From assembly GCA_964230645.1 (NCBI GenBank), contig CAXRHT010000002.1:704001-768000 (forward strand): a stretch of DNA of 64,000 nt. Reading direction: 5' to 3'. How positions within the stretch are numbered: the first letter of the stretch is position 1; each line of letters begins with the position of its first letter. This document shows positions 1 through 19,902 of this stretch, piece after piece. The DNA is from Bdellovibrionales bacterium. GTDB taxonomy: Bacteria; Bdellovibrionota; Bdellovibrionia; Bdellovibrionales; JAGQZY01. The translations under genes and the position numbers were made by a program. The notes below the pieces were generated by a model. That model searched no databases. It was not told the origin of the DNA and saw only the letters and a list, made by a program, of their open reading frames with translations.

Positions 1-1840
1 CAGTCAGCACGTCTAAACCAGCTTGGGAAATCTTGTTAATTCGTCCTATGATTAAATCAACCACATTGGTTGACACCATGAGACTGTCGAGATTCTCAAG
101 GTCCACAAGCCACTGATCGCCGGCCCGATGAAGAACACCTTTATCAAACATGGAGTAGATGTATTGTGCTAAAACGAAGGGATTTCCTTGAGACTTTTCA
201 GCCAGACGATTGACCACAGGTTCATCAAGAGGGCTTCCACCCAGGAGGTGAGAAATAATGTCACCAAGAGCCTTGTTTTCCAGAGGCTTTAAGCTCATGG
301 ATTGGGAAAGAGAGCTCTCCCAGAGTTTTTCAACTTTCTTAAGAGCCGGAAGGCTGTCGGCGTCGTTTCGAGCGGTGAAGAGAATAACAACTCTTGCTTC
401 TTGCAAACGTTCAAGAAGGTTTGATAGAACCCCACGACTGGCAGGGTCCAACCACTGCACGTCATCAATATGAAGAACCAATGTCCCCTGTTCTTTAGCT
501 AACTGTATCAGGAATGTAGCGATACCACGAAAAAACTCATCCTGCCCAGCGCCTTCATGTTGGGAATTGGAATCGGAGTTTATAAGCTCACCAAGGTTTC
601 TTGAGAGTCTCTTTACAAAGGTTTCATTTCCTTGTGAGGCCTGTTTTAATTTAGCGAAGGCTTTTTCACGTTTGTCTTCAGAAATACTATTAAGGGAATA
701 CAAATAAGTTTCTATAGCTTCGCGCAAAGGCCCAAGAGGTGTTTGCTCAGTCAGATGACTTTTACCAAAGAGGTGCAGACTTCTTTCTGCCGGCAATGAT
801 TCAATAAACTTTTTAACAAGATAGGATTTCCCCGATCCCGGCTCACCTTTAACAAGATAGGCCACACCCTCTTGGACGTCTTCTACTTTGAGCGAAGACT
901 GAAGTTTGGCCATTTCACTTTCACGTCCTAGTAGAGGAAGTTCATTCAGTCGTCCCAGACGAAAATCTTTTTTACCAAGAGTGAGTTCCCCTTGCTCTTT
1001 CCAGTCTTGCTCTAAACTTTCAAGACTTGCGAGATCAGCACTTAAGCCTTCTGCCGTTTGGTAGCGATCTTCGGGATTTTTAGCCAAAAGCTTTTTCACA
1101 ATGGCTGTCACCGAGCCTCTTAGGGTCGAATTTTTTTGTTTAAGATTGGGGACCTCAGCTTTTGCATGCAGGTTTAAAAGCTCTGCTGTATTCTCAGAGA
1201 AGAAAGGAGGTTCTCCACAGAAAGTTTCAAAAAGAACAACTCCTAGTGAGTAGAGATCACTTCTTGCGTCCACCTTGTCTTCGCGCATCCCCGACTGCTC
1301 GGGAGCGGCATAAAGAAAGGTACCGACCGCTTCTTGCTTTTCTGTCTTTAAGACTTCTGACTTCTCAGCAAATCCAAAATCGATAAGCTTAGCTTGCCCG
1401 TCTTCACAGATGAAAATGTTTTGGGGTTTTACGTCGCGATGGACGAAGCCATTGCGATGCACCTCTCCGAGAGCCCCTGCTATATCACAAGCTAAGCGAA
1501 GAGCTTGGGTCTCAGAGAAAGAGGATTTTTCCAATTTATCAGAGAGTTCTTCGCCGTGAAGGATCTCCATGACCACAAAGGGTTGATCATTATGCTCGCC
1601 AAGTTCGATCACACGGGTCAGTGCTGAGTGATTGAGACGGCTGAGGATTTCGGCTTCATAGCGAAAGCGCAAACTGGCAGAAGCATAATCTTCGCTGACG
1701 TCTTTTCTCAAAAGTTTTAATGCATACTCAACACCCTCACGTTCGACTCGATAAACATAGCCTGTCGCGCCTTCGCCGATCTGTTCGATCAAGGTGTAGG
1801 ATCCAATGGTTTCTGCAAGCTTTTTTGCGTCACTAGACAT
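1..1840 (-). CDS. Ser/Thr protein kinase fused to a P-loop AAA-type ATPase domain; 3'-truncated by the window edge
   Basis: Not in the ORF track. Manual translation from the ATG at 1840 gives MSSDAKKLAETIGSYTLIEQIGEGATGYVY..ALK..HRDVKPQN..DFG..GTFLYAAPE..SDLYSLG, then LLGRESE and Walker A GEPGSGKS. Confidence 0.9.
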   Translation of the reverse strand, partial: MSSDAKKLAETIGSYTLIEQIGEGATGYVYRVEREGVEYALKLLRKDVSEDYASASLRFRYEAEILSRLNHSALTRVIELGEHNDQPFVVMEILHGEELSDKLEKSSFSETQALRLACDIAGALGEVHRNGFVHRDVKPQNIFICEDGQAKLIDFGFAEKSEVLKTEKQEAVGTFLYAAPEQSGMREDKVDARSDLYSLGVVLFETFCGEPPFFSENTAELLNLHAKAEVPNLKQKNSTLRGSVTAIVKKLLAKNPEDRYQTAEGLSADLASLESLEQDWKEQGELTLGKKDFRLGRLNELPLLGRESEMAKLQSSLKVEDVQEGVAYLVKGEPGSGKSYLVKKFIESLPAERSLHLFGKSHLTEQTPLGPLREAIETYLYSLNSISEDKREKAFAKLKQASQGNETFVKRLSRNLGELINSDSNSQHEGAGQDEFFRGIATFLIQLAKEQGTLVLHIDDVQWLDPASRGVLSNLLERLQEARVVILFTARNDADSLPALKKVEKLWESSLSQSMSLKPLENKALGDIISHLLGGSPLDEPVVNRLAEKSQGNPFVLAQYIYSMFDKGVLHRAGDQWLVDLENLDSLMVSTNVVDLIIGRINKISQAGLDVLT

Positions 1841-1955
1841 CAGTGTTTTATCGGCAAAAGCTGTAGGATTATTTACGCAACCAAAAAGCTCTGGTCGTTG
1901 GTCGGACTTGCCTTAGGGAAGTGGTGCTGAGGGCTCAAAAAAGTTAAGATATTCT

Positions 1956-2849
1956 GTGATGATACAGTTTTCCAAAAATCTTATGCCCAGGCCCTATCGT
2001 CGAGTCAGTGTCCAAAAAATAGAGGGCCCACTGGATGAGAAAAATCTAGTAAATTACTTTAATGGCAAAGAAGCTTTCATGGCGACCGATTATATTGTGG
2101 TCAAAGGACAGGGCACAGCCGTTTTAATGGTTGAAAAAGAGGAGAGAAAAGAAGCTCTCTTTTCAAAAATAGTTAAGACACAGATCATTTCCCTCCCTAA
2201 AAACTGTCACTATATCCAGGATGAGGTAGTGGATGTTGGGAACCCCTCTCACCTCACCCGAAAGTTTTGGGACCTTAATCTGAGCGAGGACTCTACCTTA
2301 GTTGTGGAGGGTGCCTATGGGCATGTTAATTTTATTCATAAGCCCTCCCCTCTTAAACTGAAAGTGATAGATCTAGTTCCTCCTAAAACATCAAGACTTT
2401 ATGATCTTGTTTTAAAAGCCATTGAGTTGGCGGACCTCCCTCCTATTCTTTTGGAGGCTGATTTCATTGACGTCAATGATATCGCAAAAGAGTCAGGTTT
2501 TAAGGACTGTATATTTCCCTGCCGAGCCTCTGGATTAGAAGCTCCGGGAGAAACTTTTTTTCTCGACGAGCATCCGGCTAAAAACAAAGCCCCACTTATA
2601 GGCTGTGAGAGAACAGAGCAAATTTATCAGCACTTTTACGGTGAAAAACCCCAACGGGTTGAAACCTGTCCCCAAAAAATTAAAAGCAAAGGCAAAATTG
2701 CGCAAATCACTCGCTGTTGTCTTTTGCAAGACTCTACAAATATGGAAGAGAATCGTGGAATTATCCCTTGGGGAGGAAATGTGCATCATGTGATCTCTGT
2801 TTTAGAAAAGCTTTGTGAGGTGAATCAGATTCCCTGGGAAAAGAATTAA
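1956..2849 (+). CDS. Conserved Cys-rich hypothetical protein; candidate XcbA-type CoM biosynthesis protein
   Basis: 297-aa ORF with PCRASG, GCER, TCP, RCCLL and PWG motifs. Convergent with the xcbE-like gene; the two stop codons share TTAA at 2846-2849. Function is inferred from context only. Confidence 0.6.
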   Translation: MMIQFSKNLMPRPYRRVSVQKIEGPLDEKNLVNYFNGKEAFMATDYIVVKGQGTAVLMVEKEERKEALFSKIVKTQIISLPKNCHYIQDEVVDVGNPSHLTRKFWDLNLSEDSTLVVEGAYGHVNFIHKPSPLKLKVIDLVPPKTSRLYDLVLKAIELADLPPILLEADFIDVNDIAKESGFKDCIFPCRASGLEAPGETFFLDEHPAKNKAPLIGCERTEQIYQHFYGEKPQRVETCPQKIKSKGKIAQITRCCLLQDSTNMEENRGIIPWGGNVHHVISVLEKLCEVNQIPWEKN

Positions 2850-3826
2850 GCGCTAAAAGTACCCTCTTGGTAACGGTCTGAAAAAAGTGCTGCCTCCCCG
2901 CCTGTCATCAATAGAACCAGGTTTTCATTTTTACTAAAATGATTGGAATCAATCAGAGCTTTTGTTCCCATCATGGCTTTTGCGCTAAAAACAGGATCAA
3001 GGAGAATTCCAAACTTTCTCAAGAAATCCTTACTAAACTTTGCCACATCCGGAGTGACAACTCCGTAGCCTTCCCCAAGGAACTCATCGAAAATTTCAAT
3101 TCCCTCAAGAGAATTGGTGGTTTTATCAAGCTCACCAACAAGGCTTAAAATTTTTTCAAGACTTTTAGTTTTATTTTTACTGGTCGCAAAACCGGTGACT
3201 TTCCAGTTAGCTGGGTGCGCTCTTTTACCTTGGTGAATCCCAGCGATTGTGCCGCCACTTCCGACAGGAAGGATAAGCCGATCCATATTGATTTTTAGAT
3301 CTGCTGTTTGCTCTTTGAGCTCTTTAACGAAGTCGATCCATCCCAAGGCTCCGGTGGCTGAAGCCCCTCCTCGTGGGATGAAATAAGGTTTCTTACCTTT
3401 TTTAGTGAGTTCCTCACAAAGCCTCTTTGCCAATTCATCGGCTGAAGTTCGTGGATCTTTCCCTGAAAAATTTAGGTGCGCTCCGCTCATTTTTGAGATG
3501 AGAAGGTTGCCTGTAGGGGTCGCGACCTCTTTTCCGTAAAGTGCCAAATGGCATGCTAGTTTAGATTTTGAGGCGGCCCCTGATATAATTCGTAAGTGAT
3601 TGGACTGTGGTCCTCCAGCAGCAACAATGTCGGTAGCCCCTTGGGAAAGAGCTTCCGCAATGAGGTACTCAGCCTGTCTTACCTTATTGCCACCACCCAT
3701 AAAGCCTGAGAGGTCCTCACGCTTGAGCCAAATGTTACGATTCCACACTTTTGAAAGGGACTCACAAAAGTGAAGTGGGGTCGGATAAAGACCCAGATCC
3801 ACTTTTTTAAAGGACGTGCGACTCAC
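2846..3826 (-). CDS. PLP-dependent D-cysteine desulfhydrase/ACC deaminase family enzyme (XcbE-like)
   Basis: PTPL..LKREDL..GGNKVR (PLP lysine), QSNH, GSGGT, LDPVFSAK. 4-nt overlap with the upstream gene. Confidence 0.88.
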   Translation of the reverse strand: MSRTSFKKVDLGLYPTPLHFCESLSKVWNRNIWLKREDLSGFMGGGNKVRQAEYLIAEALSQGATDIVAAGGPQSNHLRIISGAASKSKLACHLALYGKEVATPTGNLLISKMSGAHLNFSGKDPRTSADELAKRLCEELTKKGKKPYFIPRGGASATGALGWIDFVKELKEQTADLKINMDRLILPVGSGGTIAGIHQGKRAHPANWKVTGFATSKNKTKSLEKILSLVGELDKTTNSLEGIEIFDEFLGEGYGVVTPDVAKFSKDFLRKFGILLDPVFSAKAMMGTKALIDSNHFSKNENLVLLMTGGEAALFSDRYQEGTFSA

Positions 3827-5220
3827 TCAAGCTCCCCTTTTATTTTCTCTAGAAACTCTTGGTCTCGATGGTCTTCTTTTTCTGAAATCTCAAGGGCCCT
3901 TTCACATAGCTTCAAACTCTGGCCGAGGTGGTTGTTGTAATCTAGAAATTGTGAACATTCTGATTCGCTAAGCACGGCCCTAAGGCTCTGATCCCTTGTA
4001 ATAACTGATTCTAAGGACTGTGAGCTGGATTTTGATTGATGTATTTTGTCTCGAACCCACTGACGGGCCGAGGCTAAGCCCCACTCATTAGCGAGTCTCA
4101 TCATGAGAGCCTCGCTTAAAATAAGACCTTGAGTGGATTTTAGATTCTCAAGCATCCTTTCTTTTTTGACCTCAAGGTTTTGAAAAAGCTCACCAGATAT
4201 TTTTAAACAGGCCGAAGTCATCGCTAGAATTTCTGGCCAAACCGCCCATTCCACTTTCCAAGCCTGCCCGTCTCTTTCATGTTCATGAACTAATGACTCT
4301 TGTAAAACAGCCGCCTTATGTCTGATGATTCGTGCGAGACTGCCGATTTGCTCTGACTTTTCAGGGTTTCTTTTTTGGGGCATCGTCACACTTCCGACAC
4401 TCTCAGGCTTTGAGCCCTCTAAGACTTCTCCGATCTCTGTTCGTTGCAAATTGTAGATCTCATGGCCCATTTTAGAAAGACTTCCGCATATCGATGAGAG
4501 AATGAGGGCAAATTCTAAAAGTGAGTCTCTAGAGTTTGTCCAAGCAAGTGTGGGCACTTTAAGTTTTAACTCTTGCGCGAAGCTTTTTTGTAAGTCAAAT
4601 GCACTTGATCCATAACCACTCATGACTCCGACACTTCCTCCCAATTGAACAAAACCAATACGAGGGTGAAGGTCTTTGAGGCGATCTAAATGTCGTCTGA
4701 TTTCCTGTAACCAAAGGCTTACTTTATAACCAAAGGTAATCGGAGCGCCCCACTGACCGTGTGTTCTACCAATCATGGGTGTTTTTTTATGCTCTTTTAT
4801 CAATGTTATTAAACTCTTTTCGATTTCCTTTAGTTGCTTAAACGAGCTTTCCCAGAACTTTACTAATACTCCAGAGAGCCAAGTGTCCGTGATATCTTGT
4901 ACTGTGCAACCGTAGCCAATGTATTCCCCCTCAGGGCCGAGGTGCTTGCGTAGTTGATCAAAAAGTCCTTGAAAGGAGTGGCCATTTTCTTGGTAGGAAG
5001 TTCTCAACTCCTCCCAATTCACTTTATAGTCTGTTAGGCCCTCTTTGATCTTATTTCCCGTGTTTTGGGGGATTATATTGAGTTTCTCTTGATGGGTGGC
5101 CAAAATAACAAGAATCTCAACCCAGGCCTGTAGTTTTGTTTCCTCATCCAGTAATTTCGCCACTGATGGATCCACCCAACTTTGAGAATAAATCTTGGAA
5201 TCTAAGATCGATAAACTCAT
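3823..5220 (-). CDS. Adenylosuccinate lyase-like fumarase/aspartase superfamily enzyme (XcbD-like)
   Basis: MIGRTHGQ..PITFG, signature GSVTMPQKRNP, HERD. ATGA overlap with the upstream gene. Confidence 0.88.
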   Translation of the reverse strand: MSLSILDSKIYSQSWVDPSVAKLLDEETKLQAWVEILVILATHQEKLNIIPQNTGNKIKEGLTDYKVNWEELRTSYQENGHSFQGLFDQLRKHLGPEGEYIGYGCTVQDITDTWLSGVLVKFWESSFKQLKEIEKSLITLIKEHKKTPMIGRTHGQWGAPITFGYKVSLWLQEIRRHLDRLKDLHPRIGFVQLGGSVGVMSGYGSSAFDLQKSFAQELKLKVPTLAWTNSRDSLLEFALILSSICGSLSKMGHEIYNLQRTEIGEVLEGSKPESVGSVTMPQKRNPEKSEQIGSLARIIRHKAAVLQESLVHEHERDGQAWKVEWAVWPEILAMTSACLKISGELFQNLEVKKERMLENLKSTQGLILSEALMMRLANEWGLASARQWVRDKIHQSKSSSQSLESVITRDQSLRAVLSESECSQFLDYNNHLGQSLKLCERALEISEKEDHRDQEFLEKIKGELE

Positions 5221-6647
5221 AATAAGGCCTCTTTAGCCTCAGAGACTATTTTTTTCTTTTTATTTTTCCAATCTTCATTCTGCTTGTTGGAGAGTTCTTC
5301 TAACCTTTGACTCCAACTTTTAAAATTAGACAGACTTTTCAGTAACGATGGGCTTGAAGCTCCGCCTCGATCCTTACGCCGCTCAACACTTTTTTGGGAA
5401 CTCAATACTGTCTGCCACTGCTCAGCACTCCAGTTTAAAGGCTGGCCGGTCTTTTCCGAAAAAACCTTACTAAAGGTTTTAGAAAAATCTCTCACTCCCA
5501 CCCCTCTTAATGCTTCTCCCACAAGAGAGTGAGCTTGGGAGTGACTCATCTTTTTGTTAGCAACCAGTTCCTCCACCAAATCCATAGCTAAAAGGGAGGA
5601 TTCTTCCCCTCGGCTTTTTAGGCGTTGGGTGTTCACTTGCAGCCCCTCTAACACCCGAGTTAACTTTTGATAAGATTCCAAAACTAGATCCAAGCTTTCG
5701 GGTAATTCGTTATAGAGAAAAATACGGTTATCAATCTGATTGGTTCCTGTCCTACCGAGGCAAAGAGCTCCTGAAACTCGGCCAGAAAGCAAACTAGCAA
5801 CTCCACGAGCAAAAGTCAGATCATAGGGATTCTTTTTTTGTGGCATCGCCACACTTCCGCGACAAACTTCGTCGGAAAAACCAAAATAATCAAACTCCTG
5901 AGTGGCCCACACGAGGAAGTCTTCACTCAGGCGGGCTAATACTAGCGAATCACTGGCAAGGAGCCAGGCCACTTCCAAAGCGACATCACTCTGCCAGACC
6001 CCATCGCGACTGTTCTCAACACAGTCCTCAAATCCAAGGCGGTTGGCTAGTTTCTCTCGATTTAAAGCCATGGTGGAGCCATTGGTACTACCCACTCCTG
6101 CGGGAGAGAGATTGAGCCTTTGAAAACAGGGTTGAGCGCGATCCGCATTCCTTAGAATGGGACCGAGAAAACTTGATAAATAATACCCAAGAGTTGAGGG
6201 CTGAGCCGGTTGCAAGTAGGTGTAGTCAGCCATAGGAGTGTCTTTATAAGAGTGTGATTTTTCCAGTAAGACCTCAACAAATTTCAGACGCGCTTGCATC
6301 AGTGCAAGGCTTTTTTCTTTAATAAGTAAGTGGAAAGCCACGGTGGTTAACTCCCGACGGGCCCGTCCCACACCGTACCACTGAGCCGCCTCTTTACTTC
6401 TTTCTTTAATCAGTTGCTCGCGATTTTTATAGAGGTCTCCCCATTTCTCACTAAAGGGAACGCTATTAGGATTCATATCCTGCAAAACTAAAAGAGCCTT
6501 GAGAAGGGACTCTCCCACCTCTTGAGGAATCAATTGATTTTCTAAAAGATTCAATACATGAGCGAGATCGCTGTAGCCAAGGTAAGGCCAAAAACTTTGC
6601 GCTTGCTTGAGCTCCCATGTTGTTGCTGCCGTAAAGGTGTCTTCCAT
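5217..6647 (-). CDS. Argininosuccinate lyase-like fumarase/aspartase superfamily enzyme (XcbC-like)
   Basis: Signature GSVAMPQKKNP, GRARRE, DYTYLQPAQP (Tyr where ArgH has THLQ). Start moved to ATG 6647 (MEDTF), just after the comA stop. Confidence 0.85.
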   Translation of the reverse strand: MEDTFTAATTWELKQAQSFWPYLGYSDLAHVLNLLENQLIPQEVGESLLKALLVLQDMNPNSVPFSEKWGDLYKNREQLIKERSKEAAQWYGVGRARRELTTVAFHLLIKEKSLALMQARLKFVEVLLEKSHSYKDTPMADYTYLQPAQPSTLGYYLSSFLGPILRNADRAQPCFQRLNLSPAGVGSTNGSTMALNREKLANRLGFEDCVENSRDGVWQSDVALEVAWLLASDSLVLARLSEDFLVWATQEFDYFGFSDEVCRGSVAMPQKKNPYDLTFARGVASLLSGRVSGALCLGRTGTNQIDNRIFLYNELPESLDLVLESYQKLTRVLEGLQVNTQRLKSRGEESSLLAMDLVEELVANKKMSHSQAHSLVGEALRGVGVRDFSKTFSKVFSEKTGQPLNWSAEQWQTVLSSQKSVERRKDRGGASSPSLLKSLSNFKSWSQRLEELSNKQNEDWKNKKKKIVSEAKEALL

Positions 6648-6654
6648 ATTAAGC

Positions 6655-7482
6655 CTAACAATCCTTAAAAGTGTCCCAACGTAAACCCATGCGCAGGGCT
6701 TCAAGGCCCAGTAGATCACTGGGAGCCACATTGCCAAGGTTGACGTTGGTGCCGAACTTTTTAATCAGCAGGGCTTGTTGTCTTTTTTGGGGAGCCTCCC
6801 AGATCAGTTTTTCCGGTTGATCGAGTTGTGAAGTTAAACGTTGAAACAGTTTGTTATTCACTTCCCCATGTTCATCAAAAATTCCCACACCCTGCCCGGA
6901 CTCCCTGGCTTCAACAACCACAAACTCAACACCATTTTCCAAGTCCTGTTGGATTTGTTCGGCTAAGAGCTCGGGCTCTGGCTGAAGTTTAGGATCTTTC
7001 TTCCCCACTTCACTGATCACTCTTAGGCCTAAATCTTGCGCTCTTTTTTGAGCCTCTTTTCGATCGGCCAAGGGGATCTCAAAAAAGCCATCGGAGACTT
7101 CCACCATATTGAATCCAAGGGATTTAATTTTTTTAAAAAAGGCCGGCAAGGTACCGGCACGGTAGGAGATTTCGAACAAAGACCCACCGGGGAGCACATC
7201 GACTTCAGCCGCTCTTAAAACGGCAATTTTCTGTTTTAAAAGGGGGGAACTTATTAAGGCCGGAGTGCCAAAACTTAGTTTGACCTGATCAATGTAGTGA
7301 CTCAGATAGCTGACAAAGTGCTCACTCTCGCTCACTCCGAGTGTTCGATCAAGGATCATCGTGAGTCCGTCTTGTCTTGGTTTTACAGAGCGTTGTGGGA
7401 GATGAGGGAGAATTTCTCTCCACTCCTCATGAGGCAGAGATTGACTATAGGGTAAAACATTTTTTTGACGAATGGCGCTCAA
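6655..7482 (-). CDS. comA: (2R)-phospho-3-sulfolactate synthase (ComA/XcbB)
   Basis: KPRQDGLTMILD, VKLSFGT, PGGSLFE, VEVSDG, SEVGKK, VEARESG, IWEAP, NVNLGN, LEALRMGLRWDT. A TTG at 7482 follows a GGGGAG SD; the ORF track starts at 7512. Confidence 0.93.
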   Translation of the reverse strand: MSAIRQKNVLPYSQSLPHEEWREILPHLPQRSVKPRQDGLTMILDRTLGVSESEHFVSYLSHYIDQVKLSFGTPALISSPLLKQKIAVLRAAEVDVLPGGSLFEISYRAGTLPAFFKKIKSLGFNMVEVSDGFFEIPLADRKEAQKRAQDLGLRVISEVGKKDPKLQPEPELLAEQIQQDLENGVEFVVVEARESGQGVGIFDEHGEVNNKLFQRLTSQLDQPEKLIWEAPQKRQQALLIKKFGTNVNLGNVAPSDLLGLEALRMGLRWDTFKDC

Positions 7483-7518
7483 GGCGGGCTCCCCTTCTTT
7501 ATGTTTCTTCAATTATTA

Positions 7519-7549
7519 AAAAGGTTTAGAGACCCTCTCTAAACCTTTT
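7519..7549 (-). terminator. Intrinsic terminator-like hairpin between the PLP decarboxylase gene and comA
   Basis: Perfect 14-bp inverted repeat AAAAGGTTTAGAGA-ccc-TCTCTAAACCTTTT, ending in a T run on the minus strand. Confidence 0.6.
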
Positions 7550-7582: not shown

Positions 7583-9016
7583 CTAGGCACTTTTCTTTAG
7601 ACTCAATTCTCTGCCACCTTCTCTGAGATGCTCTAATAATGCGTCCACATCTTTTTGAGTGACCCGATGGTTCACACAGCAAATTCGAAAAGCAAATTGA
7701 TCATTTAAAACTGTTCCGCCAATGAAAACCTCACCCTTAGCTTCTGCGCGCTCAAGAAGTCTTCGGTTCAATTGATCGAGATCCTCGCCCGAATTTTCTC
7801 CCCGGTATCGAAAACAAACGACGGAAAGACCTGAGTCACCGACAACTTCAAATTCATCATCTGCGGCCAATTGTTTTTTAAACTCATCCATTAAGTGAAT
7901 GTTAGTTGAGATCGCGTCCCTAAAACCTTGGGCTCCGTAAATGCGAAATGCCAACCAAAGTTTAAAGGCTTTAAACCCACGAGAGAGTTGGAACCCATAC
8001 TCCATATAGTCCATGCGTCCGGCCTCTACGTCTGCAGAAAGATAAGGAGGAAGAAGGCTATTTACCTGACGCAAAAGTTTTGGCTCTTTTAAAAGGGCAC
8101 AACCCGCTTCGACAGGAGCGTAAAGCCATTTGTGTGGGTCAATGGCAATGGAGTCACATCGATCCATACCCTTAAATAAGGGAGCCAGATGAGTGGCGGC
8201 CGCCGGAGCCCCGTAAGCTCCATCAACATGGAACCATAAATTATGTTTTTCACAAAGATCGGCCAGAGCCTCAAGATCATCGACAGCCCCTGTGTTGACC
8301 GTTCCGGCATTTCCCACCACACAAAAAGGCTGCAGACCTTGTTTTTTGTCAGCGACAATCTTTTTTTCAAGTTTATCTAAATCAATTTTACAATCGGAGT
8401 TTGCCTGAATTTTCACAAACTGATCTTTTCCCATACCCAGAGCACTTAAACTTTTATCAACACAGGAATGGGTTTCAGTGGACCCATAGATCACTAAATT
8501 ATGAAGACCTTCTTTTAAGGTCAGGCCGGCTCGATCAAGAGCAATGTCACGTGCGGCATGCAAGCAAGTGAAATTGGCATGAGAGCCTCCAGTGGTAATA
8601 ATCCCGCCGTAGTTGGAAGTTAATCCTGTGAAGTCAGCAAGCCAACTGACCACGGTTTTTTCAATCTCTGCGGCAGCCGGTGCAATATGCCATTTGCCAC
8701 AATTTTGATTGATCGCTGCGGCCAGCATATCTCCTAAAATCCCAGCTTGATGACCACAAGAGGTCACGTAAGCAAAAAATCGCGAACTAATATTCCAAGT
8801 AGAGCGTTCAGAAATGGTTTTCATGGCTTCACGGATAATACTCTCAGCATCCCCACCTTTGTCGGGTAAAGTCTGATGATAGGGCTTGGCGATTTCCTCA
8901 GGGGTTTTATCGGGAAAAACTTTTCTTTGGTCGAGTGACTCGTAAAGGTCCGCGATCTCATCTGCGGCAACATGTAACAAATTGCGAAATTCCTTATGAG
9001 AAAAGTCTAAAGACAT
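7583..9016 (-). CDS. Group II PLP-dependent amino-acid decarboxylase (aromatic amino acid/DABA/CSAD family)
   Basis: TTGGSHAN, AGTVNTGAVD, WFHVDGAYG, SIAIDPHKWL (PLP lysine), QLSRGFKAFKLW. Confidence 0.92.
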   Translation of the reverse strand: MSLDFSHKEFRNLLHVAADEIADLYESLDQRKVFPDKTPEEIAKPYHQTLPDKGGDAESIIREAMKTISERSTWNISSRFFAYVTSCGHQAGILGDMLAAAINQNCGKWHIAPAAAEIEKTVVSWLADFTGLTSNYGGIITTGGSHANFTCLHAARDIALDRAGLTLKEGLHNLVIYGSTETHSCVDKSLSALGMGKDQFVKIQANSDCKIDLDKLEKKIVADKKQGLQPFCVVGNAGTVNTGAVDDLEALADLCEKHNLWFHVDGAYGAPAAATHLAPLFKGMDRCDSIAIDPHKWLYAPVEAGCALLKEPKLLRQVNSLLPPYLSADVEAGRMDYMEYGFQLSRGFKAFKLWLAFRIYGAQGFRDAISTNIHLMDEFKKQLAADDEFEVVGDSGLSVVCFRYRGENSGEDLDQLNRRLLERAEAKGEVFIGGTVLNDQFAFRICCVNHRVTQKDVDALLEHLREGGRELSLKKSA

Positions 9017-9167: not shown

Positions 9168-10295
9168 ATGTTAAACGCCAATCATGAAAAAGTTTTTGAA
9201 GTGGTCGATACCGAACTTGATTTTAAAGGTTGGATTGCCATTCATACATTAAAAAACAATATCGCTTTTGGTGGCTGCCGTTTTGACCTATCAGTGGATA
9301 AAGAAATGGTCATGGAACTGGCTCGTTGTATGACTCTTAAACTAGCCTCTCATGGATTACCTACCGGAGGAGCAAAGGGCGGTCTCTGCGTGGACCCTCG
9401 CCGTCCTGACATCAAAGAGGTTATAAAATCTTTTGCGCAGAAATCAAAAGAGATACTCACCTCACAGGTCATTTTAGGAAAAGATCTCGGCGCTACGGAT
9501 GAAATGATGGTAGCCCTTTACCAGGCTCTTGATGTTCCTCAAATGCACCTAAGTCAAAAACACTGGCCCCATCGCAACGTGCCTGATCGCTTGAATTTAC
9601 TTCGTGGCTATCGCAAACATATGACAGGACTGGGAGTGGCCTTTTCAGCGCACTCACTGTTTAATTCTCGCCTGAGTGAGCGCAAAGTCATTATCCAAGG
9701 AGCCGGAGCTGTTGGAATGGGAGCGGCCTTTCGCTTCGAAGAGTTTGGAGCCAAAGTTGTTGGGATCAGTGATGCCAAACACTGCATTTATCGGTCCGAA
9801 GGTTTTAGTTTTTTAGAACTGCAACAATGGGTGGAGCAAGGGCAAATTCAGACAACCCGTCTTCCCGAAAACGTGGAGTGCTTAGAGAACTCAAAACTTT
9901 TTGAACAAACGGCTGACATTTGCGTTCTTGCCGCCACTTCTAATAGTGTAACCAGAGAGCATGCCAGTAGTATGAAAGTTGAAGCTGTGATAGAGGGATC
10001 AAATTTTGGTTTACAATCTGAGGCCCGAAAGTGCTTACAAGACCAGAAGGTCGTTGTTGTGCCTGATGTGATTGCAAGTAGTTCCAGTGCTGCTATGGTC
10101 TGCCATCAAATTTCTCAAGGGAATTTATTCACCCAGGGGGAGCTGTGGGACAAGATTCTTAGCTCCATCAAAGAGGCTGTGCAAAAATCAGCCGAGGTCG
10201 CAAGCATTGAAAATTGTGATCTAAGACAAGCCTATACGGAAATCGTTGCGCCTGAACTTCTTGAAAAGTCTCAGACACAAAAACAAGTGGCTTAA
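9168..10295 (+). CDS. Glu/Leu/Phe/Val dehydrogenase family protein
   Basis: GGCRF, LARCMTLK, GGAKGG, GKDLG, TGLGV, Rossmann QGAGAVG, VIEGSN, VVPD. Confidence 0.88.
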   Translation: MLNANHEKVFEVVDTELDFKGWIAIHTLKNNIAFGGCRFDLSVDKEMVMELARCMTLKLASHGLPTGGAKGGLCVDPRRPDIKEVIKSFAQKSKEILTSQVILGKDLGATDEMMVALYQALDVPQMHLSQKHWPHRNVPDRLNLLRGYRKHMTGLGVAFSAHSLFNSRLSERKVIIQGAGAVGMGAAFRFEEFGAKVVGISDAKHCIYRSEGFSFLELQQWVEQGQIQTTRLPENVECLENSKLFEQTADICVLAATSNSVTREHASSMKVEAVIEGSNFGLQSEARKCLQDQKVVVVPDVIASSSSAAMVCHQISQGNLFTQGELWDKILSSIKEAVQKSAEVASIENCDLRQAYTEIVAPELLEKSQTQKQVA

Positions 10296-11378
10296 TTAAA
10301 GCTGAGCAATGTAAATAAAAGAGCCCCCTGCACGCACGCCGGGCTCAATGATTTTGCAACCAGACTCTTTAAAGATCCCGTGCCAGTCATCCTGGGTTCT
10401 GGGAAGTCCTTGCCTTGAAAGGTAGTGAATCAAACGGTAATCAAGACGTCCAAAGTGTTTCAATGGAGCCCCACCGGGATTAAAAGCATCAAAGTCCTCC
10501 ACTTCTATGGCAAGAAGATTCTTACCCTTAAACTGGGCCTGAAGGGACTTTATAACTTTGATGATGGCGTCCCGACCATCCCGACCAAATTCATGCAGCA
10601 TATACATCGCAGTGATAAAATCCACTTTTTCGACTTCTTCTGCACTCAAGGGCAAATCCTCAGCCCCCACCTCGGCCTGATAAAAAGACAATCGGTTTTC
10701 AAGCTCAAAATTCTTTGAGTTGCCATTGGCCTGAGAGAGGGCCTCTTTGGACATATCCACACCCACTCCTGAAATTTCTGGATTTAAGCGTAAAAGCTGC
10801 ATCAGAAAATCACCGGTACCACAACCAAGATCTAAGACACATTCAACGCCATGGTTCTGTAGAGTGTCCAAAACTTTGGGAATGGTAAAGGCACAAGTCG
10901 CATAAGCCGTTCCTGCAGCCGCGTGACGAGTGGATCTATCGAAGTAGGGATCATCAAGGGGTCTTTTCTTAGCTAAAATATCGGTAAGATCGGTGAGAAC
11001 TCTTTTATAGGCTCCGGGATAAATATTAAGAACCCCTCGGGTGTAAGCATTAAAATAACGCTGTCCTTTTTCTGTGGGAATGAATTCATCACCTTGGACT
11101 TCAAAGGCCCCACAGCCGGTGAGATAATTCATCAGATGTTCCATTGTGGTTTCATCAGCATCCAAAGCCTTTGCGGCCTCACTCACCTTAAATCGACCCT
11201 TTTCACGCAGATACTCGTAAAAACCGCAGTCTGACAATGCCAGCAGGACATTGGTCAAGATAGACTGGGAGATCATATTGCGAGCCTCAACGATGGGATC
11301 CACTGGACCTTGCTGTTGTTCACGCACAATGGCGGCCTCTTTAAGTATGTCGTAAGAATTTGAATCTTTTTTGCTCAT
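10296..11378 (-). CDS. SAM-dependent methyltransferase, MppJ/MrsA (2-oxo-acid C-methyltransferase)-like
   Basis: N-terminal wHTH dimerisation region, VLDLGCGTG, C-terminal MLHE and YRLIHYLSRQGL His motifs. Confidence 0.8.
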   Translation of the reverse strand: MSKKDSNSYDILKEAAIVREQQQGPVDPIVEARNMISQSILTNVLLALSDCGFYEYLREKGRFKVSEAAKALDADETTMEHLMNYLTGCGAFEVQGDEFIPTEKGQRYFNAYTRGVLNIYPGAYKRVLTDLTDILAKKRPLDDPYFDRSTRHAAAGTAYATCAFTIPKVLDTLQNHGVECVLDLGCGTGDFLMQLLRLNPEISGVGVDMSKEALSQANGNSKNFELENRLSFYQAEVGAEDLPLSAEEVEKVDFITAMYMLHEFGRDGRDAIIKVIKSLQAQFKGKNLLAIEVEDFDAFNPGGAPLKHFGRLDYRLIHYLSRQGLPRTQDDWHGIFKESGCKIIEPGVRAGGSFIYIAQL

Positions 11379-11467: not shown

Positions 11468-12325
11468 TTAAGCCCCCTGCCGACTTTTGATATTCACATC
11501 TTCTGTCCGCCGGGGTTTTGTGATCTCTAAAACAGAAATAGCCTTTAAAAGATCAATAAACTCCTGGGCCTCGGGTGTTTGAGCCGATGATCCCTCAAGG
11601 CGAACTTTATTTTGAATTTGATGATAAAAGGTTTCATCACTCTTCCCCTCAAATAGGGAATTAAAAGTTTCTTTGAGCCCCTTGCAGTTGAGCAAAAGGT
11701 TTTTGTAGTTTTCCGTGATAGCCACAAAATCATCAACGAATTCATTTTTACCTTCTAGCTCCTCTTGTCCCACATAAAGAAAATTGGGTTTGAGTAAGCC
11801 TTTTCGAATCGCAGCAGAAACTCGAGGATTTGATGTGCCCAAGTGAACACCTTTTAGTTTGGGACCAAAAAGTTGTTGGCAGAACTCAAAGCGATGCCGC
11901 AACAGTGTGTGATAAAAACGGTTACTACGAAATTTTTTTAAAGTGTAGCAACGAGAAATGACTGGAAATCCTTCATGACTAAAACTATGACATATCTTTT
12001 CTGCGACAGCTCCCGCGGCAAAAAAAACTCTTTCTCCACTCCCCGTCTCGCCATAGTAAAAAAACAAATGAGTCGGACGTCTTTGATTTTCAAAGACCTT
12101 CAGATTGTTTAGAACCGGGCCAGAATTGAGTGCATCAAACCACTTCCAGGTATGGGAGTAACCGCCCTGCTTCAACTCGCTAAACAAACGAATGAGATCT
12201 TCGCAACGAGCTTGTGAAGTGGCCACCACTCGGCGCCACCCTAATTTAAATAATGTTTCCTTGGGAACTTGGACCTGCACTTCATAGGATGTTTCGGGTA
12301 AACTTAATTTTAAAGCAACACTCAT
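11468..12325 (-). CDS. Hypothetical protein, possibly GNAT-like fold
   Basis: Long ORF. FPVISRCYTLKKFRSNRFYHTLL resembles GNAT motif A. Start at ATG 12325 is tentative. Confidence 0.55.
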   Translation of the reverse strand: MSVALKLSLPETSYEVQVQVPKETLFKLGWRRVVATSQARCEDLIRLFSELKQGGYSHTWKWFDALNSGPVLNNLKVFENQRRPTHLFFYYGETGSGERVFFAAGAVAEKICHSFSHEGFPVISRCYTLKKFRSNRFYHTLLRHRFEFCQQLFGPKLKGVHLGTSNPRVSAAIRKGLLKPNFLYVGQEELEGKNEFVDDFVAITENYKNLLLNCKGLKETFNSLFEGKSDETFYHQIQNKVRLEGSSAQTPEAQEFIDLLKAISVLEITKPRRTEDVNIKSRQGA

Positions 12326-12547
12326 AAACGACCTGCTTGATGGCTTGGTAATTTTTCTTGATAGTTTTTTTATCGGAGTGGCTGGGATCAAAGTTTAGCT
12401 ATTTCTATTGATTCTTTTAACGAGACAATCCCTGTGAGCGAACGTTTAAGAAAGAGACAGTTTGCAAAGACTCGTAAATGTGTCATGATTAATAGACGCA
12501 TCAATTGGCTCTAATTTGTTCTCAAACTATTATCAACGGGAGTGCTC

Positions 12548-12964
12548 ATGATCAAAATTACAGCTCGTATGCAAAATCAATTGCGTTGTGAATTAACTCA
12601 CAAAAATTTAAACAGTTCATTAACCACAGACGCTCCTAAAACTCTCCAAGGCCTAGAGGAAAACTTCTCTCCCACTGATTTAGTGGCAAGCGCTCTAGCC
12701 ACTTGTGTACTCGTGAGCATGGGTGTGGTCGCCAGACGTCATGATATCAACCTAGAAGGTACGGTGGCCGAAGTACAAAAGAAAATGACAGACACTCCAA
12801 AACGACGCATTGAAAGCCTTGATTTGGTCGTAAAAATAAAAACAAATGTACTTAGTAAGCAAAAAAAGCTTCTGGAAGCCGCCGCTCATTCTTGTCCCGT
12901 GGCCTCAAGCCTTCATCCCGACACCAAGCTTTCTTTACGTTTTGAATATGAGGAACAGTCATGA
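12548..12964 (+). CDS. OsmC/Ohr (YhfA-like) family protein
   Basis: TDAP..FSPTDLVASALATC..SCPVASSL, with two conserved Cys. ATGA overlap with the next gene. Confidence 0.9.
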   Translation: MIKITARMQNQLRCELTHKNLNSSLTTDAPKTLQGLEENFSPTDLVASALATCVLVSMGVVARRHDINLEGTVAEVQKKMTDTPKRRIESLDLVVKIKTNVLSKQKKLLEAAAHSCPVASSLHPDTKLSLRFEYEEQS

Positions 12965-14007
12965 AAAAAGACTTTGAATCTCCTGAGAATTGGTACCACA
13001 CAGTCGGGGCTCACTATTTAGCCGTACAGATATATTTCCACCTCAATCAGGTGGGAGTTATGAATTATATCTTAGATCATGCTCCGGTAAATTCTGAGGA
13101 AATCGCGAAAGAGTTAAAATTAGATCAGCGTCTTGTCACTGATCTTTTATTATACATCGCCCATGTCGATGTGGTTATCGAAGTTAACGATAAAAACGAA
13201 TTCCAATACACCGATTTTGGACAAGAGGTGATTAAGCGCTACAGTCGTGTAGAAAATAATAAAACAACCCTCAACTTTCACAATGTGCGTGTGGGTGGTT
13301 TTAGTCCCATCTTTAATTCTATGACCGAGATGCTAAAGATGGAAAAAAGCTATGGTAAGGATATTTTTCGAGATGGTGGCGCCATTGAAGAAGGCCTCTA
13401 TACAATTAGTGATCGATTTGTTGGTGCTGTGCACACGGCTATTAGTAGACTTAACCCATCGGCCATTGTTGAACTTGGAACCGACACAGGCCTTATTTGG
13501 AAGGCTCATGAAGCCGCCCCAAACACTCCCCTTTTTGGATTGGATAAAAGCGAAGCTGTCATTAAAGAGGCAAAACAAAAACTGGCAACCTCGCAGTCAA
13601 AGGCTCAGGTCACCTGGTTACAAGATAACCTCTACAATGTTGATCAATGGGCTTCAAAAATTGAACCCAAAGATAAAGTCTGCTTTTTTAGCGTGCATTT
13701 TCATGAATTTGTCAAAGAAACCAAAAAAGATGTGGCAAAAGCCATTGAGGAAATGAAACGTTATTTTTCAGGCTCACACATTATCGTGTTAGAGCAGCCC
13801 ATGCACTCTTCAAGTGACAAAAACAAAATGTCTGAGGCCCTGTGGCTCTATTCCCACTCCAATGTTCTCATTCATCATCTTATTAACAGCGGACGCATTT
13901 TACCTATTAAGGAGTGGATTGATCTTTTTCAAGACTCCGGGGCCAAGCTTGTGGACCAAAGGGAAACCGGTTATTTGGGATATGAGGCTCTTGATTTTAA
14001 ACTCTGA
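12961..14007 (+). CDS. SAM-dependent methyltransferase, divergent paralog of 10296..11378
   Basis: N-terminal wHTH, IVELGTDTG (degenerate SAM motif), HFHEF and NVLIHHLINSG His motifs. Confidence 0.72.
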   Translation: MKKDFESPENWYHTVGAHYLAVQIYFHLNQVGVMNYILDHAPVNSEEIAKELKLDQRLVTDLLLYIAHVDVVIEVNDKNEFQYTDFGQEVIKRYSRVENNKTTLNFHNVRVGGFSPIFNSMTEMLKMEKSYGKDIFRDGGAIEEGLYTISDRFVGAVHTAISRLNPSAIVELGTDTGLIWKAHEAAPNTPLFGLDKSEAVIKEAKQKLATSQSKAQVTWLQDNLYNVDQWASKIEPKDKVCFFSVHFHEFVKETKKDVAKAIEEMKRYFSGSHIIVLEQPMHSSSDKNKMSEALWLYSHSNVLIHHLINSGRILPIKEWIDLFQDSGAKLVDQRETGYLGYEALDFKL

Positions 14008-14012
14008 GGTCT

Positions 14013-14930
14013 TTAGACCCTCACTGCTAACTCATAAATTGACTTTGGAAGCTCTCCTAGAACTTCCCCCTTTTTATTGCGCTGGGGGTATTTAGGGAAG
14101 AGTAGAAAACCATCCTGTGGAACTTCGATCGACTCATTCCTTGAGTTCGCTCCGATCACTTCTCCCGCCTTTACCTCAGTAAAGTTTAAGTAACCGGGCT
14201 TAAGAGCCATTTTTGAATCATCGAATTTTTCTTGATAAATTATTTTGAGGCGCTCAAATGGCTCATGGGAATTATTATCCAGAGAAAGGTTGCAATTTAA
14301 ATCAATCATCTTTTTTAAATGAAGAAGGGTTAATTCGGTCACCTCATCACTAAAACCCTTCTGATACATTTCTAGACATATATGAGCCACTCCCTCATTC
14401 ATAGCAGCGCCCATAAAAGTCCCATAATCTTTATTCAGTTTCGCTGGTACTTCGATTAAATAAGGGGCCCCACTCAAATAGGCAGCTAAAGAAAGAGATT
14501 TCTCTTCATTCTCAGCCAGATAAAAGCAATGACGACTGGCCTCGATGGTTTGATGTAAGTCAAGATGATAGTCCACCCCGCTTAAGAGTGACTGCAATTG
14601 CCGAGCACGCTTAGCCTCTGCATGGTCGCCTTTGTTATTACCAAACTGACGATTTAAATCCGCTTGTAAGAATCGCTTTTCTGCCAGGATAGCCTTAGGA
14701 TTTCCTAAGGCGAAAACCAATGATCCACTCAGGCTCCACCTTTCCTCATTTATGTTTTTGATAGTCTCAATCACCCCCGGTAAAGAGCCCACTTCATCAC
14801 CATGAACACAAGCCGTGATAAGCTTTCTTGGCCCAGGACTTACCCCTTTGATCTCAATGGATTCAGAGATGGGCCCGGGATATTGCTCAGTCCACTTCTT
14901 AAAATGAATCAGGCATTCCTCAAGGTTCAT
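14013..14930 (-). CDS. Succinylglutamate desuccinylase/aspartoacylase (M14-like) family hydrolase
   Basis: CVHGDE, GNP, DLNRQF, LDLHQT, CLEM. Start at ATG 14930 overlaps the GNAT stop (TAATG). Confidence 0.88.
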   Translation of the reverse strand: MNLEECLIHFKKWTEQYPGPISESIEIKGVSPGPRKLITACVHGDEVGSLPGVIETIKNINEERWSLSGSLVFALGNPKAILAEKRFLQADLNRQFGNNKGDHAEAKRARQLQSLLSGVDYHLDLHQTIEASRHCFYLAENEEKSLSLAAYLSGAPYLIEVPAKLNKDYGTFMGAAMNEGVAHICLEMYQKGFSDEVTELTLLHLKKMIDLNCNLSLDNNSHEPFERLKIIYQEKFDDSKMALKPGYLNFTEVKAGEVIGANSRNESIEVPQDGFLLFPKYPQRNKKGEVLGELPKSIYELAVRV

Positions 14931-15616
14931 TAAACGCTCTCTTTCCTGCGAACAACCAGCATAGGAAGGCGCTGATGGACACTCCAACCAAATCTTTTAT
15001 ACATCGCTACGGCAGGATCGTTGGGCTCCACCACATGCCCAAAAGGAAGAAGATTCTTATCCATGCACCTTTTGGTTAAATAGGAGAAAATATATCGTCC
15101 TAAACCTTTGCCGCTAAAATCAGGATGAGTACACAAAGTGCTCACTTCCTCAAAGCCTGGTATTCGCATTCTGATTCCAACCATGGCTATGAGGAGGTCT
15201 TCCTGGAAAATTCCAATATAAGGGCCCAGTGCCATGGAATTGGGGCGAAAATACTCGGGGAAAACTTTATTGGTTAACTCAATCATCTGAGGAATATCAT
15301 CCGTAGTTAAGAGTTTAATTTCCCAATCAGCCTCGGGTACCTCTACTTTCTTCTCGCAAATCATTTGAGTGACATAGGTTTCTTTGAGAACTTCCCATTT
15401 TTGACTCAACTGGGGGATCTCACCCACGAAGATTGCCTTCTCATTTTCTGAGAGCAGATTTTGCAATTCTCTTTCATCAAAGGTCTCTTTGTTCTCAACT
15501 GCCGTAAAAAAAGCCATATCACTCGGATACTTTTTAACCTGCTCACCCAGGGCTAAACTTTTGTGATCACTCACCAGGGAATACCAAATAGGATTCTTTA
15601 ATTTTTCAAGACTCAT
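14930..15616 (-). CDS. GNAT family acetyltransferase (FR47-like)
   Basis: LKNPIWYSL, EVSTLCTHPDFSGKGLG, PFGHV..N..AVAMYKRFG. Confidence 0.9.
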   Translation of the reverse strand: MSLEKLKNPIWYSLVSDHKSLALGEQVKKYPSDMAFFTAVENKETFDERELQNLLSENEKAIFVGEIPQLSQKWEVLKETYVTQMICEKKVEVPEADWEIKLLTTDDIPQMIELTNKVFPEYFRPNSMALGPYIGIFQEDLLIAMVGIRMRIPGFEEVSTLCTHPDFSGKGLGRYIFSYLTKRCMDKNLLPFGHVVEPNDPAVAMYKRFGWSVHQRLPMLVVRRKESV

Positions 15617-16999: not shown

Positions 17000-18196
17000 T
17001 CAATAATAAGAGGTTTGAGGTTTCTCTCCCACAAGCACCCTACCAAAAAGCTCTTTTGCAACACGAATGTCAAAAGCCGGGTGAGCTTTCATAGCCTTAT
17101 AATCAAGAAAAAAGCGAGTGAGTTCACTTGATGGATTTACAACCTTTACTCCGAGGAGACCCTCGATCCGATCAATGACATTGCCATTGAGTGCAAAAGC
17201 ATAAGCCATATCCAAACGGGTCTTGGCTCTTTCTAAAGTAGTAAATGATTTTTTTTGTTCCATGTGTTCATTGAGCTTTTCACCTATTGATTGATTTAAC
17301 GCTTGAGCGGCGTCGATCTGCGCCTGGGCTGTGGCAAGCTCAGCCAAAGCCAGCGGACTTTTACTTTGAGGTCTTCCTTCATGGGGAATAAAACTTTGCG
17401 CCAATCGACTTTTGGCTTCTTCAAGGACTCGAACCGCTACACCGGAGCAAACCTGAGCCATGAGCCAATTAGCCATAAAAGCCGGAAGATAAAGAATTGG
17501 GGATTGCTTTAGTTGCTCCTCCTCAACCTTAGAAAAAACACGGGAAAAACTAATACCGCGATGCTCAGGGATAAAGTGATCGTTCAACACAACGTCCTTA
17601 CTCCCTGTACCGTGAAGTCCAACAGGAGACCAGGTGCTTTCAATCTCGCATTTTCCTGTAGGCACCAAAAAAGACATCACTTCATTTTTATCGTCGTCTG
17701 TGTTTTTTGCTGTTAGCATAACCCAGTCTGCCGCTTCACAACCACTGGCCCAGCGCCAACGCCCGCTCAAGCGGTAACCACCAAGTACTGAAGTGACTTT
17801 TCCCGTGGGTGCTGAAACTCCGCAAATTATATTATTGACTCCTTTTGGCTGAACTTCCGCTACAGCTTCGTCTGGGAAAAAATGCAACACCCAGCTTGAA
17901 AACGACATATAACTGGCCAGGCACCAGGCAGAGGAGGGGCAGGCCGTCGCCATTTCTTCAATCACTCTTTGAGCCAATAAAAAGTCAGGACTTCTTCCAT
18001 CACGATAAGGAGATATGATTTTCAAAAATCCTGACTCCTTAAAAAGCTTGGCGTTTTCTGGCAGCAGTCGACGAGCCTCAAAAGTTTCTTCATTCAAATC
18101 CGCTAATTTTTTCCTGAGAGGAACAATGCTGTCTTGCACACTTTTCAAGATCATGTCTTCGTTTTCCAAAATTTTTTGCTGAGCCCTTTGAGACAT
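17000..18196 (-). CDS. Acyl-CoA dehydrogenase-fold flavin-dependent monooxygenase (HsaA/C2-hydroxylase-like)
   Basis: ACPSSAW, GYRLSGRWRWASGCEAADW, WSPVGLHGTGS, C-terminal HPAF. AAGGAG SD before ATG 18196. Confidence 0.85.
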   Translation of the reverse strand: MSQRAQQKILENEDMILKSVQDSIVPLRKKLADLNEETFEARRLLPENAKLFKESGFLKIISPYRDGRSPDFLLAQRVIEEMATACPSSAWCLASYMSFSSWVLHFFPDEAVAEVQPKGVNNIICGVSAPTGKVTSVLGGYRLSGRWRWASGCEAADWVMLTAKNTDDDKNEVMSFLVPTGKCEIESTWSPVGLHGTGSKDVVLNDHFIPEHRGISFSRVFSKVEEEQLKQSPILYLPAFMANWLMAQVCSGVAVRVLEEAKSRLAQSFIPHEGRPQSKSPLALAELATAQAQIDAAQALNQSIGEKLNEHMEQKKSFTTLERAKTRLDMAYAFALNGNVIDRIEGLLGVKVVNPSSELTRFFLDYKAMKAHPAFDIRVAKELFGRVLVGEKPQTSYY

Positions 18197-18392
18197 TTGC
18201 ACTCCTTCAATAGACTCTAGCTTATCGGAATTCTTAATAAATTTCTTAAAGCATGAAGAATAGACTGTTATCTAAATTTGAAACAAAAAGACTTGGTTTA
18301 ATGAAGTAATGTCCTATTCAAAAGAGCCTCATTTTACGATGTCTACCTACAGGGATTCTCGCCGAAGGTCTTGGATCTTTGCTTGGGGCTTA

Positions 18393-19732: not shown

Positions 19733-19902
19733 GCAACGGACTCCTTAAAACTTCATTATCAACGAGGACTTAAATGATAATGCAGGTTTTCTATAAAAAA
19801 TAGCACTAGGTCGAGCCCATACTAAAATGAGTCAGTTCTTATTTCATTCCTGGGCGTTCTGACGTATGCTGAGACAAATACAGCAAAGTTTTGGGATTTT
19901 TC

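Follow-up and report, generated by a model that had tools for sequence, protein, structure and literature searches.

The window analysed in this study, a 64,000-nt stretch of the genome of a Bdellovibrionales bacterium (G000), contains five genes of the xcb type, which are associated with the biosynthesis of coenzyme M (CoM), a sulfur cofactor familiar from methane-producing and alkene-consuming microbes. A sequence-only reading of this DNA had claimed a tight operon of comA, ArgH-like, PurB-like and D-cysteine desulfhydrase-like genes with a convergent Cys-rich gene, and all of these open reading frames (ORFs) are indeed intact where it had placed them. The Cys-rich gene was taken for a hypothetical gene beside the operon; it is present, but it is XcbA, a pathway member and not an extra. 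The five genes and an adjoining hairpin are as follows.

1956..2849, forward strand: xcbA (DUF7714), of the [2Fe-2S] last-step enzyme family; NF052538 294.8 bits, above the cut-off of 150; 37.6% identity to the pXAUT01 copy
2846..3826, reverse strand: xcbE-like pyridoxal phosphate (PLP) enzyme of the D-cysteine desulfhydrase family; NF052537 is the best model; 33.8% identity to XcbE of Xanthobacter autotrophicus Py2; motif LDPVF
3823..5220, reverse strand: xcbD-like lyase, predicted to add cysteine to sulfoacrylate; NF052536 is the best model; in the XcbD clade
5217..6647, reverse strand: xcbC-like lyase, predicted to convert phosphosulfolactate to sulfoacrylate; NF052535 is the best model; in the XcbC clade
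6655..7512, reverse strand: comA/xcbB, phosphosulfolactate synthase; TIGR03849 297.6 bits, above the cut-off of 280; PDB 1qwg at E 6e-52
7519..7549, no strand assigned: 14-bp perfect hairpin between a decarboxylase gene and comA; single copy in the genome by blastn

The C/D and D/E junctions are 4-nt overlaps, and the stop codons of xcbA and xcbE overlap in TTAA. Judging from the alignment, xcbC most likely starts at the ATG at 6647, 7 nt past the comA stop, rather than at the listed TTG at 6737. The comA gene possibly starts at the TTG at 7482, as a Shine-Dalgarno-like GGGGAG suggests. The hairpin is likely a terminator. A promoter scan, with 11 sites versus 8.4 expected, was uninformative. 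A single short-read contig from run X1, possibly the assembly's own source, covers positions 1-20000 of the window at flat depth. Run X5, from a second study, contains a related strain (mostly 90-99%) in pieces spanning the island; among the differences listed (40 of 156 rows), 13 of the 16 in xcbC are at third codon positions.

The best NCBIfam model for each of the five proteins is an Xcb or ComA model, and both XcbA and ComA score above their cut-offs. XcbB is 43.7% identical to its Py2 counterpart, and the ComA alignment to 1qwg shows that EVSDG, EVGKK and RESG are retained. The two lyases are distinct from their housekeeping relatives. XcbC is 39.2% identical to Py2 XcbC versus 24.7% to the genome's own ArgH, and XcbD is 36.5% identical to Py2 XcbD versus 27.7% to the genome's own PurB. 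XcbC contains GRARRE and DYTYLQ like the Py2 enzyme, whereas the ArgH counterparts are GRSRND and MTHLQ; the RARRE and TY motif is found in Py2 and in 86 of 101 XcbC homologues, a set selected by similarity to the window protein. The motif ERDGxxWKxEW is found in the window XcbD, in Py2 and in 88 of 89 homologues. The sequence-only reading had proposed an xcb-type cluster, a phylogeny of the lyases against housekeeping enzymes and a search for separate argH and purB. In a FastTree tree of 63 rows, the window proteins fall within the XcbC and XcbD clades with a support of 99 each, together with the Xanthobacter enzymes and separate from ArgH and PurB. A true purB is located among purine genes (474 bits, above 326) and a true argH adjoins argG (348 bits, above 279.5), each in its own operon. 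XcbA has four cysteines (C189, C217, C238 and C254) that are invariant across 29 rows and are kept in all three Bdellovibrionales genomes that bear xcb genes, namely G000, G521 and G575. Its predicted structure is confident (pLDDT 94.1), and a Foldseek search of the model against the PDB gave no match at E <= 0.001; the protein may have an undescribed Fe-S fold.

The host genome has a size of 3.78 Mb and is 99.59% complete with 0.85% contamination. Its closest named RecA relatives, at 92-93% identity, are labelled 'Bdellovibrionales bacterium', in agreement with the Bdellovibrionota host predicted earlier, and the sequencing runs that contain it are labelled marine metagenome, with no RNA run listed among them. 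The proposal that the window lacks alkene monooxygenase, epoxyalkane:CoM transferase and 2-ketopropyl-CoM carboxylase (2-KPCC) holds for the whole genome. PF02332 (alkene monooxygenase hydroxylase) and PF01717 (epoxyalkane:CoM transferase) were found in none of the three xcb-bearing Bdellovibrionales genomes, with the pXAUT01 control positive for both. In G000, 25 transferase queries from related loci and a hidden Markov model built from them gave no match, no match to Py2 AamA/B/D/E or XecA was better than E 0.5, and the closest counterparts of 2-KPCC (23-26% identity) have a GG(D/V/T)CLN motif and not GGSCPH. The link between xcb and alkenes is broken at the gene level in three near-complete genomes, so xcb genes are an unsafe marker of alkene degradation.

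A strong XcbA match was found in 3 of the 384 genomes of the order. A fourth match was dropped (39 columns, E 7e-4). XcbA was found in none of 12 genomes of the same genus and in none of 400 other genomes in a sample of the phylum, which did not include G521 and G575; a metagenome scan returned only relatives of 33-42% identity and no further Bdellovibrionales island. In G000, the xcbA gene is divergent from the gene of a giant Ser/Thr kinase, with 115 nt between them. This kinase, which starts at position 1840, is the main clue and was missed by the sequence-only reading. The 561-residue central region of this kinase is 41% identical to a protein in G521 and 40% to one in G575 (483 and 459 bits), and every other match among the 384 genomes scores 131 bits or less. 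The orthologous kinase is thus confined to the same three genomes as XcbA, and the three island kinases form one clade with a support of 100. Common to the three islands are the kinase, xcbA-E, OsmC, a HATPase_c_2-like protein and small proteins. In G575, xcbA and osmC lie directly upstream of the kinase, and xcbE-D-C-comA, the ATPase and a small protein follow 6-12 kb onward. The G521 kinase is separated by ~11 kb from an osmC-xcbA-comA-xcbC-xcbD operon, and the two sides of the contig break between them are joined solely through a lyase ORF that overlaps. Between the three genomes, the xcb proteins share only 29-46% identity, and the G000 genes do not stand out from their genome in codon use (z -1.1 to +0.6), so the association between xcb and the kinase looks old. 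Recent horizontal transfer of the island was considered and rejected, there being no compositional sign of it.

The kinase and the other genes of the G000 island are as follows.

1..1840, reverse strand: 5' part of a 1854-residue Ser/Thr kinase–AAA–GAF–GAF–SpoIIE (PP2C) protein, running off the window; assigned by Pfam and motifs
7583..9016, reverse strand: PLP-dependent decarboxylase, group II type; PF00282; PDB 4obu at E 6e-72; not seen in the G521 and G575 islands
9168..10295, forward strand: Glu/Leu/Phe/Val dehydrogenase; 40% to the G002 and 46% to the G632 copies in xcb-free kinase islands
10296..11378, reverse strand: S-adenosylmethionine (SAM) methyltransferase, similar to MppJ and 2-ketoarginine C-methyltransferase; TIGR04543 113, below 425; PDB MppJ at E 2e-12
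11468..12391, reverse strand: GNAT-like protein with no Pfam match; Atlas lead 0.94; homologues in xcb-free kinase islands
12542..12964, forward strand: OsmC-family protein with both cysteines; PF02566; the only non-xcb enzyme common to the three xcb islands
12961..14007, forward strand: second methyltransferase, weakly of the 2-ketoarginine type; homologues in xcb-free kinase islands
14013..14987, reverse strand: AstE/aspartoacylase-family deacylase; PF24827
14930..15619, reverse strand: GNAT acetyltransferase; PF00583
15639..16982, reverse strand: PAS–EamA fusion, candidate exporter; present in 5 of 351 genomes of the order
17000..18202, reverse strand: flavin-dependent monooxygenase of the HsaA/C2-HpaH type; replaced in G521 by an HpaB-type gene
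18393..18908, reverse strand: small protein without a Pfam match, with homologues in each of the three xcb islands
18905..19732, reverse strand: HATPase_c_2-like (RsbW-type) ATP-binding protein; Atlas 0.95-0.97; homologues in all three xcb islands
19891..20406, forward strand: second small protein with no Pfam match

The giant protein has kinase, Walker A/B and PP2C motifs. The SpoIIE domain and the HATPase_c_2 lead could be parts of a partner-switching system; the two small proteins, which we take to resemble anti-sigma antagonists, have no Pfam match, and no sigma factor was seen in the island. Two xcb-free kinase islands contain homologues of the G000 dehydrogenase, second methyltransferase and GNAT-like gene, so the G000 island looks composite and these three probably do not use CoM. 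More widely, the idea that CoM is used by the decarboxylase, dehydrogenase, methyltransferases and GNATs found no support: they are missing from the G521 and G575 xcb islands, and three of them have the homologues just mentioned.

The neighbourhoods of all 16 weaker kinase-region matches (<= 131 bits) were read. Twelve adjoin biosynthetic genes. Ten of these are of the polyketide synthase (PKS) type, three of the ten calls resting on BLAST to scanned neighbours; one is beside an acyl-AMP ligase, an aminotransferase and a flavin monooxygenase (FMO), and one is beside an AMP ligase, a beta-eliminating lyase and a dehydrogenase. Of the other four places, one has nothing but an ATPase and small proteins around it, two are fragments whose neighbours are uninformative, and one does not encode a kinase. 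Two further islands that combine the kinase with biosynthetic genes were found via the PAS–EamA gene and are not an unbiased sample. G000 has no type I PKS at all, which suggests, on the basis of this one genome, that the adjacency of kinase and PKS is not background. We also observed a kinase–AAA–GAF family of ~1.7 thousand residues in Bdellovibrionales (L213-L226, L233-L236, L169-L172) beside PKS, acyl-AMP ligase, AurF- or non-ribosomal peptide synthetase (NRPS)-like and halogenase-like clusters. G575, which also bears xcb, has a second kinase island with two genes (L171:8747-9816) that we take to be a split thiamine pyrophosphate (TPP) decarboxylase pair, ComD/E- or phosphonopyruvate-decarboxylase-like.

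These observations suggest an explanation for the locus. The divergent but intact xcb set may make CoM or a close sulfonate-thiol as the cargo of a kinase-linked biosynthetic island and not for alkene breakdown, an interpretation that we regard as about evenly balanced between right and wrong. The genes, their clades, the lack of alkene genes and the co-occurrence with the kinase are observed; the reactions, the product and the regulatory link are what we infer from homology and gene context. By homology to Xanthobacter Py2, ComA would combine sulfite and phosphoenolpyruvate (PEP), XcbC would remove the phosphate to give sulfoacrylate, XcbD would add cysteine to the sulfoacrylate, XcbE would carry out cleavage and decarboxylation, and XcbA would catalyze a reduction as the last step. 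Clade and motif make the predicted first three steps (ComA, XcbC and XcbD) well supported; the XcbE step is the weak one. The kinase–AAA–GAF–phosphatase protein, the RsbW-like ATPase and the small antagonist-like proteins could act together as a partner-switching circuit, either to control synthesis or to sense what is made. The xcb set looks like one cargo of a family of kinase-linked biosynthetic islands, and, of the two roles that the sequence-only reading had suggested, the genomic context favours a specialised metabolite over a general redox thiol. A bolder version, which we hold only tentatively, is that Bdellovibrionales have an island family in which a giant kinase–AAA–GAF–phosphatase accompanies a small-molecule pathway that can be exchanged (for polyketide, acyl-amino, NRPS-like or CoM products), with every kinase clade reading a molecule of its own. 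CoM or a derivative would here be a signal or specialised metabolite, a role that, if true, is not described for this cofactor in the literature searched.

A number of observations weigh against this interpretation. XcbC, XcbD and XcbE score 403.8, 495.6 and 255.7 bits, below the NCBIfam cut-offs of 575, 600 and 450, and the G521 and G575 proteins fall below them too; with the models of ArgH, PurB and CuyA the G000 proteins score lower still (218.8, 243.9 and 235.8, respectively). The three proteins form long branches in the trees. The XcbE tree does not join the G000 protein to Py2 XcbE: the three Bdellovibrionales PLP enzymes cluster apart from it (7 rows, support 99, long branches), and the orthology of G000 XcbE rests mainly on synteny. 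All three enzymes read LDPVF, with Phe at the site equivalent to Tyr287 of Salmonella DcyD, in which Y287F is inactivating (PMC3344862). OsmC is the sole tailoring enzyme that the three islands share, and the stretch read around the G575 island contains no PAS–EamA gene. Only three genomes bear the island and two belong to one genus, giving about two independent cases; the adjacency gives no direction of control. The ten PKS loci represent about three sequence types with many near-copies, not ten independent events. As for a source of sulfite, a search of G000 for CysD/CysH-type proteins gave nothing beyond a marginal 22-bit match, and cysteine dioxygenase was searched for and not found in this genome. 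G000 has a metallo-beta-lactamase–rhodanese fusion gene with sulfur-transport and TauE genes; this operon, read from its sequence as a persulfide dioxygenase operon, could supply sulfite.

The substitution in XcbE can be read in two ways. G000 XcbE retains the PLP lysine motif GNKVR, and its best model is XcbE. Among xcb-linked homologues, the Tyr is found in Py2 and in 54 of 72; 6 have Gly, 9 have no motif, 1 has Arg and the last 2 are the G521 and G575 proteins. Phe is found at this site in 41 of the 119 top homologues. In DcyD, the Tyr takes the proton from D-substrates and the proton of L-substrates faces the lysine (PMC3344862), so the change from Tyr to Phe could be harmless for an L-cysteine adduct or could mark another reaction. 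The product may therefore differ from CoM. An alternative that we consider fairly unlikely is that the first three steps are shared and Phe-type PLP chemistry leads to another sulfonate end product, such as the adduct of cysteine and sulfoacrylate or a mercapto-sulfonate that retains its carboxyl group. The Phe in all three enzymes and their grouping apart from Py2 XcbE, the detachment of the G521 PLP gene from its xcbA-B-C-D operon and the extra enzymes that differ between islands argue for it; the retention in all three genomes of XcbA, the last-step enzyme, with its cysteines argues against it, as do the possible dispensability of the Tyr for an L-cysteine adduct and the frequency of Phe as a natural variant. 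The kinase link is common to this alternative, to the redox role considered next and to the biosynthetic-cargo interpretation.

CoM could also be a redox or detoxification thiol, with OsmC using it to reduce peroxides and the kinase circuit serving as a stress switch. OsmC has both cysteines in all three islands, and in two of them its gene either touches xcbA or comes directly before it; searches of G000, G521 and G575 gave no canonical glutathione synthetase, and CoM is reported to be an antioxidant in Methanosarcina (PMC12713407). However, two xcb-free relatives also have no GshB, so its lack does not set the xcb genomes apart, none of the three islands contains a disulfide reductase, and a general buffer would be unexpected in only 3 of 384 genomes. 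An OsmC-family gene also flanks 5 of 18 xcb loci of the alkene type and 8 of the 18 other long loci, suggesting that OsmC may be a synthesis helper. We regard the redox role as unlikely. Epoxide or alkene metabolism is the only described bacterial role of CoM (PMC9457059; PMC11507031), and 23 of the 75 xcbA loci in a GTDB scan carry the epoxide transferase nearby; but with the transferase, Aam and XecA queries negative and the 2-KPCC motif absent in a genome of this completeness, use of CoM in alkene or epoxide metabolism through enzymes missed here is already largely refuted and highly improbable. Refuted, and even less probable, is an origin of the genes as housekeeping argH, purB and dcyD or as a binning artefact. 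The missed cut-offs of XcbC, XcbD and XcbE would fit it; the separate argH and purB and the trees speak against the former, and the mid-contig position, host-like composition and recurrence of the island in two other genomes of the order against the latter.

The locus represents a known pathway in divergent form, with both its host and its context being new. It shares with Py2 xcbABCDE (pXAUT01, CP000782.1; PMC9457059) the five families, the order and coupling of B-C-D-E, 34-44% identity and the XcbC and XcbD motifs. It differs in that xcbA is convergent (upstream in Py2), aam and xec are absent from the genome, XcbE has Phe for Tyr, a giant kinase is the neighbour and the host belongs to Bdellovibrionales. 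The CoM/epoxyethane cluster of Methylohalobius crimeensis and other methanotrophs likewise has CoM genes without alkene monooxygenase, but these clusters keep etnE and detoxify epoxide (PMC11507031), whereas no transferase-family gene was found in G000. The archaeal-type comABCDE of the Desulfobacterota 'Anaeropigmentia' also represents predicted CoM genes in bacteria outside known alkene users; its genes are stated to be distinct from xcbC, D and E (bioRxiv 10.1101/2021.03.22.436540). For the kinase, the TOMM kinase/cyclase fusion (TIGR03903) of Burkholderia TOMM clusters is likewise a large Ser/Thr kinase that accompanies a biosynthetic cluster (PMC2887384). Among NCBIfam models, TIGR03903 matches the G000 kinase best (227.7, below the cut-off of 705.75). 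Unlike the TOMM protein, the island kinases have a SpoIIE output, and their cargo is xcb, PKS or ligases and not a ribosomally made peptide with post-translational modifications (RiPP). Cyanobacterial cbSTKIII dual kinases such as HstK also combine an N-terminal Ser/Thr kinase with GAF domains but end in a histidine kinase (PMC2176072), whereas the G000 protein ends in a PP2C-type phosphatase domain. Among the titles and abstract openings listed in a literature search, none dealt with xcb-type clusters that lack epoxide genes or that occur in Bdellovibrionota, and none with the link between the kinase and biosynthetic clusters. The kinase link provides a concrete lead on function and points to apparently undescribed regulated biosynthetic islands in predatory-type bacteria.

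Other xcb-related loci were observed in the course of the analysis. In pXAUT01 (CP000782.1, L190:19709-20790), the xcbA gene located upstream of xcbB spans two reading frames and has no annotation in the collection used. The G521 island has a second PurB-like lyase outside the XcbD clade (L162:8947-10082, L067:24-485), near MmgE/PrpD and heme-oxygenase-like genes. Other GTDB xcbA loci, mainly from Chloroflexota and Acidobacteriota, have neighbours other than the transferase, with families assigned by reading of the sequences; xcb loci of this kind are not unique to G000. In 12 of the 75 loci, all from Chloroflexota (L003, L004, L005, L026, L045, L047, L049, L050, L056, L059, L060, L065), xcb lies beside genes read as MtaA/UroD-like, corrinoid-protein, RACE-like and MtrH-like, a hint that CoM may carry methyl groups in bacteria. 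The Nit1C-type, corrinoid and cbb3-oxidase contexts of other phyla are not present around the G000 cluster, and MtaA-like and MtrH-like corrinoid-context queries gave no match in G000. Distant XcbA/DUF7714 homologues (P0026-P0058) with 25-30% identity, the named ones from Methanosarcina, keep the cysteines; M. acetivorans matches the XcbA model weakly, and the literature search found no paper pairing xcbA with methanogens. Thermoplasmata loci L069, L070, L072, L075 and L076 have XcbA-like genes (29-32%), and the DNA retrieved around them contains none of the other xcb genes. The comA genes of G411, G011, G268 and G031 (L186-L189) have a different arrangement, in surface-polysaccharide loci, and were set aside; each has a small conserved neighbour, an ORF beside comA in three of the four is presumably ComB-like, and these loci possibly provide sulfolactate for glycan decoration.

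Elsewhere in the window, positions 54227-63879 contain genes for asparaginase II, two LigB-type ring-opening dioxygenase subunits, an aldehyde dehydrogenase and a luciferase-like monooxygenase, which by their families look like a cluster for aromatic amine or tryptophan catabolism. Positions 34040-36352 presumably contain an arsenic-resistance-like operon (regulator, glyoxalase-like protein, transporter and reductase). An ORF on the reverse strand at 21663-22166 has short tandem peptide repeats, and a Cys-rich, secreted-looking ORF on the forward strand at 22411-22857 consists in part of five 'GEGxCKxAxGINCxSV' units.

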